A DNA stretch of 64,000 nt from Escherichia coli (GTDB lineage: Bacteria > Pseudomonadota > Gammaproteobacteria > Enterobacterales > Enterobacteriaceae): NCBI RefSeq assembly GCF_003334405.1, contig NZ_QOWM01000006.1; one strand, 5' to 3'. Made by a program: the position numbers and the translations under genes. Each line of letters opens with the position of its first letter. Positions within the stretch are counted from its first letter, which is position 1. Shown here in pieces: positions 18,523 to 22,368 of the stretch. The notes below the pieces were generated by a model, which worked only from the letters and a program-made list of their open reading frames with translations, was not told where the DNA came from and searched no databases.

Positions 18523-19213
18523 GTGCAAGTTTCTGCACCAGTGACTCAACCATCAGGCTGGACTGTTTAGCGGCAACAGCCAGGAACTCATCGAAGCTAA
18601 GATGAGACTGTTGATCGGCCACGTCGGAGATGGCGCGTACGACAACAAACGGGACGTTGAAATTGTGGCAGACATGGGCGATTGCCGTCGCTTCCATCTC
18701 TACAGCAATGGCCTGTGGGAAGTTGTGGCGGATTTTCGCCAGACCAACAGAACCGTTGATGAAAGCGTCGCCGCTAACAATCAGGCCACGTACAGCGTTA
18801 AGATTCAGTTCGGCAATGCAGGCCTCAGCGGCAGCGATCAGTTTATCGTCAGCTTTAAAGCCTGCCGGACAGCCTGGTAACTGACCGTATTCATAACCAA
18901 ATGCCGTGACATCCGCGTCGTGATAACGTGCTTCGTCCGAGACAACGATATCGCCCACTTTCAACGTTGGTGCCAGGCCACCGGCAGAACCGGTGTTAAT
19001 AATCACATCTGGCTTGCAGTGTTCCAACAGCAAAGTGGCACCCAGCGCCGCAGCGACTTTACCGATGCCCGATTTCAGAAGCGCAACCTCGGTTCCATTC
19101 AGTTGGCCGGTATAGATTTCGCAACCGCCGAGACTGATAGTTTGACGGTTTTCGATTTTGTCACGCAGCAGCGTAACTTCTTCTTCCATTGCACCAATGA
19201 TGCCGATTTTCAT
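18515..19213 (-). CDS. mtn: 5'-methylthioadenosine/S-adenosylhomocysteine nucleosidase
   Basis: 232-aa [27 protein letters not shown]...; matches Mtn (Pfs). Confidence 0.97.
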
Positions 19214-19296
19214 AGATTTACTCGCGATAAGCCCGATTTGAAGGCATAGTTTACCATGCGCTTACGGGGAAGCGTATTTCTCACGCGGGAGAGGAC

Positions 19297-20814
19297 ATGG
19301 CACAGATTGATTTCCGAAAAAAAATAAACTGGCATCGTCGTTACCGTTCACCGCAGGGCGTTAAAACCGAACATGAGATCCTGCGGATCTTCGAGAGCGA
19401 TCGCGGGCGTATCATCAACTCTCCGGCAATTCGTCGTCTGCAACAAAAGACCCAAGTTTTTCCACTGGAGCGCAATGCCGCCGTGCGCACGCGTCTTACC
19501 CACTCGATGGAAGTCCAGCAGGTGGGGCGCTACATCGCCAAAGAAATTTTAAGCCGTCTGAAAGAGCTTAAATTACTGGAAGCATACGGCCTGGATGAAC
19601 TGACCGGTCCCTTTGAAAGCATTGTTGAGATGTCATGCCTGATGCACGATATCGGCAATCCGCCGTTTGGTCATTTTGGCGAAGCGGCGATAAATGACTG
19701 GTTTCGCCAACGTTTGCACCCGGAAGATGCCGAAAGCCAGCCTCTGACTGACGATCGCTGCAGCGTGGCGGCACTACGTTTACGGGACGGGGAAGAACCG
19801 CTTAACGAGCTGCGGCGCAAGATTCGTCAGGACTTATGTCATTTTGAGGGGAATGCACAAGGCATTCGCCTGGTGCATACATTGATGCGGATGAATCTCA
19901 CCTGGGCACAGGTTGGCGGTATTTTAAAATATACCCGTCCGGCGTGGTGGCGTGGCGAAACGCCTGAGACACATCACTATTTAATGAAAAAGCCGGGTTA
20001 TTATCTTTCTGAAGAAGCCTATATTGCCCGGTTGCGTAAAGAACTTAATTTGGCGCTTTACAGTCGTTTTCCATTAACGTGGATTATGGAAGCTGCCGAC
20101 GACATCTCCTATTGTGTGGCAGACCTTGAAGATGCGGTAGAGAAAAGAATATTTACCGTTGAGCAGCTTTATCATCATTTGCACGAAGCGTGGGGCCAGC
20201 ATGAGAAAGGTTCGCTCTTTTCGCTGGTGGTTGAAAATGCCTGGGAAAAATCACGCTCAAATAGTTTAAGCCGCAGTACGGAAGATCAGTTTTTTATGTA
20301 TTTACGGGTAAACACCCTAAATAAACTGGTACCCTACGCGGCACAACGATTTATTGATAATCTGCCTGCGATTTTCGCCGGAACGTTTAATCATGCATTA
20401 TTGGAAGATGCCAGCGAATGCAGCGATCTTCTTAAGCTATATAAAAATGTCGCTGTAAAACATGTGTTTAGCCATCCAGATGTCGAGCAGCTTGAATTGC
20501 AGGGCTATCGGGTCATTAGCGGATTATTAGAGATTTATCGTCCTTTATTAAGCCTGTCGTTATCAGACTTTACTGAACTGGTAGAAAAAGAACGGGTGAA
20601 ACGTTTCCCTATTGAATCGCGCTTATTCCACAAACTCTCGACGCGCCATCGGCTGGCCTATGTCGAGGCTGTCAGTAAATTACCGTCAGATTCTCCTGAG
20701 TTTCCGCTATGGGAATATTATTACCGTTGCCGCCTGCTGCAGGATTATATCAGCGGTATGACCGACCTCTATGCGTGGGATGAATACCGACGTCTGATGG
20801 CCGTAGAACAATAA
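19297..20814 (+). CDS. dgt: Deoxyguanosinetriphosphate triphosphohydrolase
   Basis: 505-aa ORF; HD-domain motifs (HSMEV..., [10 protein letters not shown]). Confidence 0.97.
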
Positions 20815-20870
20815 CCAGGCTTTTGTAAAGACGAACAATAAATTTTTACCTTTTGCAGAAACTTTAGTTC

Positions 20871-20898
20871 GGAACTTCAGGCTATAAAACGAATCTGA
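20871..20898 (+). promoter_or_regulatory. sigma-E (RpoE) promoter of degP: -35 GGAACTT (20871..20877), 16-bp spacer, -10 TCTGA (20894..20898)
   Basis: Exact match to sigma-E consensus spacing and hexamers, about 45 bp upstream of the degP ATG. Confidence 0.75.
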
Positions 20899-20943
20899 AG
20901 AACACAGCAATTTTGCGTTATCTGTTAATCGAGACTGAAATAC

Positions 20944-22368
20944 ATGAAAAAAACCACATTAGCACTGAGTGCACTGGCTCTGAGTTTAGGTTTGGCGTTA
21001 TCTCCGCTCTCTGCAACGGCGGCTGAGACTTCTTCAGCAACGACAGCCCAGCAGATGCCAAGCCTTGCACCGATGCTCGAAAAGGTGATGCCTTCAGTGG
21101 TCAGCATTAACGTAGAAGGTAGCACAACCGTTAATACGCCGCGTATGCCGCGTAATTTCCAGCAGTTCTTCGGTGATGATTCTCCGTTCTGCCAGGAAGG
21201 TTCTCCGTTCCAGAGCTCTCCGTTCTGCCAGGGTGGCCAGGGCGGTAATGGTGGCGGCCAGCAACAGAAATTCATGGCGCTGGGTTCCGGCGTCATCATT
21301 GATGCCGATAAAGGCTATGTCGTCACCAACAACCACGTTGTTGATAACGCGACGGTCATTAAAGTTCAACTGAGCGATGGCCGTAAGTTCGACGCGAAGA
21401 TGGTTGGCAAAGATCCGCGCTCTGATATCGCGCTGATCCAAATCCAGAACCCGAAAAACCTGACCGCAATTAAGATGGCGGATTCTGATGCACTGCGCGT
21501 GGGTGATTACACCGTAGCGATTGGTAACCCGTTTGGTCTGGGCGAGACGGTAACTTCCGGGATTGTCTCTGCGCTGGGGCGTAGCGGCCTGAATGCCGAA
21601 AACTACGAAAACTTCATCCAGACCGATGCAGCGATCAACCGTGGTAACTCCGGTGGTGCGCTGGTTAACCTGAACGGCGAACTGATCGGTATCAACACCG
21701 CGATCCTCGCACCGGACGGCGGCAACATCGGTATCGGTTTTGCTATCCCGAGTAACATGGTGAAAAACCTGACCTCGCAGATGGTGGAATACGGCCAGGT
21801 GAAACGCGGTGAGCTGGGTATTATGGGGACTGAGCTGAACTCCGAACTGGCGAAAGCGATGAAAGTTGACGCCCAGCGCGGTGCTTTCGTAAGCCAGGTT
21901 CTGCCTAATTCCTCCGCTGCAAAAGCGGGCATTAAAGCGGGTGATGTGATCACCTCACTGAACGGTAAGCCGATCAGCAGCTTTGCCGCACTGCGTGCTC
22001 AGGTGGGTACTATGCCGGTAGGCAGCAAACTGACCCTGGGCTTACTGCGCGACGGTAAGCAGGTTAACGTGAACCTGGAACTGCAGCAGAGCAGCCAGAA
22101 TCAGGTTGATTCCAGCTCCATCTTCAACGGCATTGAAGGCGCTGAGATGAGCAACAAAGGCAAAGATCAGGGCGTGGTAGTGAACAACGTGAAAACGGGC
22201 ACTCCGGCTGCGCAGATCGGCCTGAAGAAAGGTGATGTGATTATTGGCGCGAACCAGCAGGCAGTGAAAAACATCGCTGAACTGCGTAAAGTTCTCGACA
22301 GCAAACCGTCTGTGCTGGCACTCAACATTCAGCGCGGCGACAGCACCATCTACCTGTTAATGCAGTAA
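20944..22368 (+). CDS. degP: Periplasmic serine endoprotease/chaperone DegP (HtrA)
   Basis: 474-aa ORF with signal peptide, trypsin-like catalytic GNSGGAL motif, two C-terminal PDZ domains; low-complexity Q/G-rich LA loop. Confidence 0.97.
   Translation: MKKTTLALSALALSLGLALSPLSATAAETSSATTAQQMPSLAPMLEKVMPSVVSINVEGSTTVNTPRMPRNFQQFFGDDSPFCQEGSPFQSSPFCQGGQGGNGGGQQQKFMALGSGVIIDADKGYVVTNNHVVDNATVIKVQLSDGRKFDAKMVGKDPRSDIALIQIQNPKNLTAIKMADSDALRVGDYTVAIGNPFGLGETVTSGIVSALGRSGLNAENYENFIQTDAAINRGNSGGALVNLNGELIGINTAILAPDGGNIGIGFAIPSNMVKNLTSQMVEYGQVKRGELGIMGTELNSELAKAMKVDAQRGAFVSQVLPNSSAAKAGIKAGDVITSLNGKPISSFAALRAQVGTMPVGSKLTLGLLRDGKQVNVNLELQQSSQNQVDSSSIFNGIEGAEMSNKGKDQGVVVNNVKTGTPAAQIGLKKGDVIIGANQQAVKNIAELRKVLDSKPSVLALNIQRGDSTIYLLMQ

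Follow-up and report, generated by a model that had tools for sequence, protein, structure and literature searches.

Conserved sequence architecture upstream of degP in Escherichia coli: a classical sigma-E promoter and an almost invariant block at its CpxR box

RESULTS

The dgt-degP locus and its conservation set

The window, by which we mean the whole 64,000-nucleotide stretch of DNA that was analysed, carried a 129-nt gap (20815-20943) between two plus-strand open reading frames of 505 amino acids (19297-20814) and 474 amino acids (20944-22368). RefSeq annotates this pair as dgt and degP (htrA), the latter as 'serine endoprotease DegP'. A 501-nt query spanning the gap matched 5425 of 5426 complete E. 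coli genomes, with at least 99% identity in 5416, and the sequence upstream of degP was 100% identical to that of many E. coli chromosomes. These matches and the dgt/degP annotation together identify the window as E. coli chromosome and the region described here as the upstream region of degP (htrA). A terminator scan of 20500-21100 returned no intrinsic-terminator-like site in the dgt-degP gap; read-through from dgt into degP is therefore possible.

Conservation was assessed on 80 degP loci from different Enterobacteriaceae species which, together with the window, yielded 79 distinct upstream sequences for alignment. Column invariance is given for all 79, while motif variants, spacers and distances were scored in 77 species. 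The depth of the comparison is that of the Enterobacteriaceae, a search for DegP homologues having returned relatives of at least 89% identity only.

The sigma-E core promoter

Positions 20871-20898 read directly as GGAACTT-N16-TCTGA, which is the classical sigma-E promoter of degP/htrA, long known and ordinary. Its parts, all on the plus strand, are a -35 element identical to consensus (GGAACTT, 20871-20877; -33 to -27 relative to A20904), a 16-nt spacer (20878-20893) and a -10 element, TCTGA (20894-20898; -10 to -6). The exact motif occurred once on both strands of the 64-kb window against 0.01 occurrences expected from shuffles. When it was relaxed to GGAACTT-N16-TCNNA with one mismatch there were five matches against 3.1 expected, and the degP copy alone stood out. 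Across the alignment, the -35 core GAACT and A20898, the last base of the -10 element, were invariant (79/79 each). The -35 heptamer was GGAACTT in 60 of the 77 species scored, GGAACTA in 12 and TGAACTT in 5, and the spacer was 16 nt long in 71 of 77. The -10 element was TCTGA in 66 species, TCTTA in 6 and TCTCA in 2, keeping its T, C and final A while position 4 was G, T or C.

The sigma-E promoter model of Rhodius et al. 2006 comprises a GGAACTT -35, a TCAAA -10, a 15-19 nt spacer for which 16 nt is the strong preference, a discriminator whose 5-6 nt lead to an A or G start, a -35 to +1 distance of 26-27 nt, and an A/T-rich upstream region whose peaks generally lie near -48/-49 and -57/-58 (PMC1312014). 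The degP element shares its -35, N16 spacer, 5-nt discriminator, A start and A/T-rich upstream sequence with that consensus and follows the -35, spacer, discriminator and start rules; it deviates at the -10, where TCTGA, the older 'textbook' form, matches TCAAA at 3/5 positions. The first-pass annotation, made from the window's letters, had described a perfect, textbook sigma-E promoter of degP. The promoter itself was borne out by the dgt-degP locus, by conservation of the -35, the N16 spacer and the TC..A of the -10 in 79 species, and by its geometry; 'perfect' was too strong, since the -10 matches at three of five positions, and 'textbook' holds in the historical sense only. The TCTGA form of the -10 is common to rpoH P3.

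The element is the known E. coli degP (htrA) sigma-E promoter itself, the equivalent of Salmonella htrAp3, with the same gene, GGAACTT, N16, TCTGA and 40-nt leader, and it differs from that known promoter in nothing. Its response to sigma-E is documented: degP was up 56-fold in a sigma-E regulon array (PMC2731931) and DegP was up 7-fold in an rseA mutant (bioRxiv 10.1101/2021.05.16.444350). In E. coli, positions 20878-20880 read CAG, which creates an E. coli-specific inverted repeat, CTTCAG/CTGAAG (20875-20880 and 20895-20900), across the -35 edge and the -10. Nearly all other Enterobacteriaceae, other Escherichia species included, have CGC or AGC at these positions, and the repeat was rejected as a functional element on that ground.

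Predicted start site and RNA thermometer leader

The predicted sigma-E start is A20904 (plus strand), which lies 5 nt past TCTGA and 26 nt past GGAACTT, within the sigma-E rule, and which would give a 40-nt leader (20904-20943). A20904 was invariant in 79/79 species. The leader matched the HtrA fourU RNA thermometer (Rfam RF02700; 20904-20949, plus strand) over the full model (1-46), at 77 bits, above the gathering score of 52 (E = 1e-16), and with 20904 as the first base. In Salmonella htrA, the leader from the 'standard' start (htrAp3) is 40 nt (PMC5602114). The assignment of +1 to A20904 is thus supported by the invariance of that base, by the RF02700 match that begins there and by a Salmonella leader equal in length to 20904-20943.

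Within the leader, UUUU (20911-20914) pairs with the Shine-Dalgarno sequence GAGA (20931-20934), which was near-invariant (78-79 of 79 species). This thermometer structure accounts for how strongly the leader is conserved and is independent support for a start at 20904. The degP leader resembles the thermometer of the Salmonella htrA leader in matching the full family model above its gathering score; the thermometer sits downstream of the promoter motif and is no part of the first-pass annotation, and thermosensing by the E. coli copy is predicted from the sequence match. In many genera, Klebsiella, Kluyvera, Atlantibacter and Franconibacter among others (loci L012, L027, L044, L070, L077 and others), an insertion of 6-7 nt of the TAGTCAC or CTGTCAC type directly follows the 3' end of TCTGA, so that their sigma-E start and leader length must differ from those of E. 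coli.

Other possible promoters

Salmonella htrA has further starts with leaders of 47 nt and 215 nt (or 449 nt) (PMC5602114), and the 47-nt and 215-nt leader starts correspond to about 20897 and about 20729 in the window. A sigma-70 promoter scan of 20500-21100 gave nothing on the plus strand. The sigma-E spacer nevertheless holds a sigma-70-like -10, read either as TATAAA (20883-20888) or as TAAAAC (20885-20890), the latter becoming TAAAAT in the 43 of 79 species in which 20890 is T, and an invariant G20881 occupies the extended -10 position before TATAAA. TATAAA may be the -10 for the 47-nt start, in which case a housekeeping promoter would overlap the sigma-E promoter. Further upstream, TATTAT (20716-20721) could be a plausible -10 for the 215-nt start, the equivalent of Salmonella htrAp1 at 20729. 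In the literature examined, use of the 20897 or 20729 start in E. coli was not found documented.

CpxR boxes of degP

A compilation of 41 known CpxR sites, all direct repeats with N5 (or N6) spacing, includes two boxes for degP (PMC9600279 Table S1, citing De Wulf et al. 2002). Box degP1, GTAAAGACGAACAAT (20825-20839, plus strand; -79 to -65, centre about -72), consists of GTAAA and ACAAT flanking GACGA, and box degP2, GTAAATTACCGTCAG (20675-20689, plus strand), lies inside the dgt coding sequence (PMC9600279 Table S1). The first-pass annotation had named GTAAA at 20825-20829 and a complementary TTTAC as possible CpxR half-sites. The first of these stands as the first half of a documented box, given that degP1 occupies 20825-20839. 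TTTAC is without a documented CpxR role, and it lies at 20845-20849 rather than at 20846-20850 as annotated, an error of 1 nt. The annotation also missed the curated partner of GTAAA, which is the direct repeat ACAAT at the canonical N5 distance, and its low confidence in a GTAAA/TTTAC pairing was appropriate.

ACAAT is a degenerate repeat that matches GTAAA at 2/5 positions, and a search for GTAAA-N5-GTAAA with at most two mismatches found none in the intergenic region, the nearest match being that at 20675-20689 in dgt. We built a CpxR weight matrix from 39 curated sites, with degP1 and degP2 left out. Against this matrix degP1 scored 6.4 bits, a value equalled or exceeded at 154 window positions, with GTAAA contributing 8.9 bits and ACAAT -1.9 bits (range for ACAAT, CCAAT and TCAAT, -1.9 to -2.7). 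By matrix, then, the degP1 box is weak, and because its second half is negative the whole score comes from the first half. In 56 of 79 species the degP1 position was all the same where the intergenic region matched the CpxR matrix best. Position 20835, where the consensus has G, was A in 44, C in 23 and T in 10 species, with G in none of the 77 scored. This first base of the 'second half-site' and 20834, the last base of the spacer, are the variable positions of the block in which degP1 lies.

Box degP2 scored 12.3 bits and fell within the top 10 of the window; its second half was not conserved across genera, and it lies outside the conserved core. Relative to 20729 it occupies -54 to -40, and it may belong to a promoter further upstream, inside dgt, and not to the sigma-E promoter. 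A predicted N6 reverse box, CTAAAGTTTCTGCAAA (20851-20866; PSSM tables of PMC9600279), was given low weight, as it falls mostly within 20854-20870, the least conserved part of the region. The best CpxR matrix match of the window was GTAAATCTATGAAAA (19207-19221, minus strand; 16.6 bits). It overlaps the start codon of mtnN, lies on the strand opposite to dgt and 76 nt upstream of that gene, and is given as a prediction in the supplement of PMC9600279. The window also contains the curated CpxR site of skp, GTAAAACCTGGTAAG (40407-40421, plus strand), at the extreme end of the bamA open reading frame (37988-40420) and upstream of skp (40542-41027).

Compared with canonical CpxR boxes (those of cpxP, ppiA, psd and yccA), degP1 likewise has a perfect first half and N5 spacing, is no more than about 80 nt from the start and appears in the curated list. 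It differs from canonical GTAAA-N5-GTAAA in its nCAAT second half and in the invariant inverted TTTAC that follows 5 nt further on. Published expression data link degP to Cpx: it was up 26.6-fold in cpxA24 and 32-fold with pNlpE, the latter falling to 6.4-fold in a cpxR deletion (PMC9600279). Overproducing CpxR by itself failed to induce degP in one study, a result that its authors explained by limiting sigma-E, and a ChIP-exo study did not have degP among the direct targets of CpxR (PMC7657598). Full-text literature searches yielded no useful account of a degP footprint or of a sigma-70 start.

A conserved upstream block

Upstream of the promoter, the alignment delimited a 32-nt block at 20822-20853 with a mean information of 1.75 bits and 56% invariant positions. 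It was more conserved than the first and second codon positions of dgt (1.65 bits, 38% invariant), and the corresponding values were 0.76 bits and 6% for third codon positions of dgt and 0.32 bits and 0% for 20815-20820, just past the dgt stop. Invariant patches within the block were TTGTAAAG (20823-20830), CAATA (20836-20840) and TTTAC (20845-20849, plus strand; -59 to -55), followed by a highly conserved TTT (20851-20853); GTAAA, CAATA and TTTAC were each invariant in 79/79 species. TTTAC, the inverted copy of GTAAA, belongs to no curated CpxR box. GTAAA and TTTAC were 20 nt apart, start to start, in 77/77 species scored, and the distance from GTAAA to GGAAC was 46 nt in 63 species and 45 nt in 14. 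Conservation remained high over 20840-20853 and was much lower over 20854-20870 (mean 0.87 bits).

The invariance of the three patches (79/79) and their fixed register (77/77) mean that the whole 20822-20853 block is functional. For GTAAA and TTTAC, invariance at a fixed register demonstrates function rather than binding by CpxR. Because single pentamers are common, sequence statistics alone give the upstream part no significance, and its reality rests on conservation; GTAAA-N15-TTTAC occurred once against 0.04 expected, a figure that carries little weight, since the spacing was picked after the fact. Reverse-strand CpxR boxes using TTTAC scored 1.1-2.5 bits in the E. coli matrix scan, and an inverted GTAAA...TTTAC pair with a 15-nt gap is unlike the compiled CpxR sites in arrangement and spacing. 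The pairing in the first-pass annotation therefore finds no counterpart among those sites, whereas the invariance and fixed register of both pentamers stand in its favour. The three patches lie about one helical turn apart and fit neither the canonical tandem box nor a simple inverted pair. With the 31-nt footprint of CpxR~P on Yersinia ppiA as a yardstick, the block runs about 7 nt past the downstream edge of a single-dimer footprint with its centre on 20825-20839, so that a third CpxR contact or another factor is possible. TTTAC could be a docking tract for the RNA polymerase alpha subunit or a further point of contact for CpxR.

A 9-nt sequence, GAACAATAA, is exactly and directly repeated: one copy (20806-20814) is formed by the last codons and stop of dgt, while the other (20833-20841) covers the CpxR box's second half. 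The repeat is probably due to chance. The direct repeat CTTTTGTAAAGAC / CTTTTGCAGAAAC was weaker in the cross-species consensus. In Intestinirhabdus alba (locus L011), a GC-rich insertion of about 82 nt with inverted repeats, REP- or terminator-like, lies just past the dgt stop and separates dgt from the conserved CpxR block, leaving block and promoter intact. Three possible resemblances to the sites of other proteins are leads: TTTACnTTTT may be like the OmpR half-sites of ompF/ompC, CAATAAATT may be like the H-NS high-affinity motif, and AACAATAAATTT may in part match the IHF consensus.

A/T tracts between the CpxR box and the -35

The stretch that separates the CpxR box from the -35 (20840-20865, plus strand) holds phased, UP-element-like A/T tracts, namely AAATTTTT (20840-20847), TTTT (20851-20854) and AAA-C-TTT (20859-20865). 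Alpha-CTD subsites of sigma-E UP elements are centred at -63, -53 and -43, and alpha-CTD makes no direct sequence-specific contacts there (PMC3326320); the degP tracts fall on these positions, which correspond to 20841, 20851 and 20861. The degP region therefore shares with the sigma-E UP elements its A- and T-tracts at those centres. Unlike in those elements, invariant positions containing G/C (the C of TTTAC) break up its tracts, and conservation is far above what alpha-CTD binding would presumably need. A pure alpha-CTD role for TTTAC is disfavoured, because G/C-containing positions are invariant while the region of the proximal subsite is the least conserved.

DISCUSSION

That the stress-inducible promoter of degP, which encodes a periplasmic protease, is read by the envelope-stress factor sigma-E (RpoE) and boosted by CpxR is already known, and the reading that we prefer, with a probability of about 90%, joins a sigma-E promoter, a CpxR~P upstream activator bound at GTAAA, an alpha-CTD contact and a thermometer leader. 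RpoE polymerase would recognise GGAACTT (-33 to -27) and TCTGA (-10 to -6) over the 16-nt spacer and start at A20904, and the mRNA would begin with a 40-nt leader which doubles as a fourU RNA thermometer. CpxR~P would occupy a site within 20822-20853 composed of the perfect half-site GTAAA (-79 to -75) and the degenerate nCAAT one helical turn downstream, and would serve as an upstream, class-I-like activator of E-sigma-E. Most probably it would do so by touching alpha-CTD seated on the A/T tracts between box and -35, and degP output would thereby bring together envelope-stress signals from sigma-E and from Cpx. Observed here were the motifs with their uniqueness, geometry and conservation, and the sigma-E and Cpx dependence and the curated boxes come from the literature; the exact +1, the alpha-CTD contact and a role for TTTAC are what we infer. 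Counting against this model are the low matrix score of degP1 with its negative second half, the lack of a G at 20835, the failed induction of degP by overproduced CpxR, the ChIP-exo result, and the invariance of CAATA and TTTAC, which is more sequence-specific than alpha-CTD docking normally requires.

The strongest competitor denies that the invariant AAATTTTTAC-TTTT is a CpxR contact: it would be a UP-element-like alpha-CTD dock, or intrinsically curved DNA, that raises basal sigma-E promoter strength with no need of CpxR. This we hold to be possible, though on balance doubtful. Its A-tract and following T-tract motifs sit exactly at -63, -53 and -43, the degP promoter is one of those that show activity at basal sigma-E levels (PMC3326320), and A/T-rich upstream peaks near -48/-49 and -57/-58 are general in sigma-E promoters (PMC1312014). 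Docking of alpha-CTD without sequence-specific contacts is, however, a poor fit to an A and a C of TTTAC that are invariant in 79/79 species, and the region of the proximal subsite (20854-20870) is the least conserved. The two pentamers can also be taken at face value, as an inverted CpxR site in which GTAAA (20825-20829) and TTTAC (20845-20849) hold facing protomers or dimers two helical turns apart. They are the sole perfect pentamers of the region, invariant and in a constant 20-nt register; ACAAT scores negatively and never has the consensus G; and the block extends beyond the single-dimer footprint known from ppiA. Yet all characterised sites in the compilation are direct repeats spaced by N5 (or N6), the TTTAC reverse boxes score 1.1-2.5 bits in E. 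coli, the box at 20835 on the minus strand averages 2.3 bits across species, and the invariant central patch CAATA is left unexplained. OmpR/PhoB-family regulators, moreover, bind head-to-tail. We therefore regard the inverted site as unlikely, and its corollary, that the tandem GTAAA-N5-ACAAT is a database artefact, seems to us equally improbable. Much the same small chance attaches to the related proposal that the tandem box at degP is mis-drawn in databases and that the true architecture is GTAAA/CAATA/TTTAC on one face of the DNA. Were this so, it would mean either non-canonical binding of CpxR~P, by two inward-facing protomers or dimers held on the inverted perfect pentamers, or a second factor sharing the site.

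CpxR might instead act mainly on a sigma-70 promoter embedded in the sigma-E promoter, with a start near 20897. This seems rather unlikely to us, and no greater likelihood can be given to the choice of TATAAA (20883-20888) or TAAAAC (20885-20890) as its -10. The Salmonella htrA start with the 47-nt leader maps to 20897, beside the sigma-E start with the 40-nt leader (PMC5602114), within the sigma-E spacer TATAAA and G20881 show good conservation, and pNlpE induces degP 6.4-fold without CpxR (PMC9600279). It follows from this residual induction that the sigma-E and Cpx inputs are at least partly separable. Cpx induction of degP was reportedly found by Danese and colleagues in 1995 to be only partly sigma-E dependent. 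Against an embedded promoter stand the absence of a -35-like hexamer, the empty plus-strand sigma-70 scan of 20500-21100, an E. coli start at 20897 that was not found documented in the literature examined, and the attribution of failed degP induction by overexpressed CpxR to limiting sigma-E. To the view that the upstream pentamers are functionless products of chance and that the sigma-E core alone matters we give next to no credence. Single GTAAA or TTTAC pentamers are indeed frequent, and by matrix the box is nothing out of the ordinary, given that 154 window positions score as well or better. The block is nonetheless more conserved across 79 species than first and second codon positions of dgt, while the adjoining 20815-20820, between the dgt stop and the block, is essentially unconstrained at 0.32 bits; conservation of block and pentamers across 79 species effectively refutes chance.

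The preferred reading, a sigma-E promoter with CpxR~P bound upstream at GTAAA, thus restates what is known of degP, and confirming the promoter adds nothing new and serves only as a positive control. The sole point of some interest is the unexplained invariance of CAATA and TTTAC. What selection preserves upstream of degP is GTAAA / CAATA / TTTAC, not the tandem GTAAA-N5-GTAAA that is used to annotate CpxR sites, and this difference in the conserved pattern may explain why CpxR matrices predict regulation poorly.
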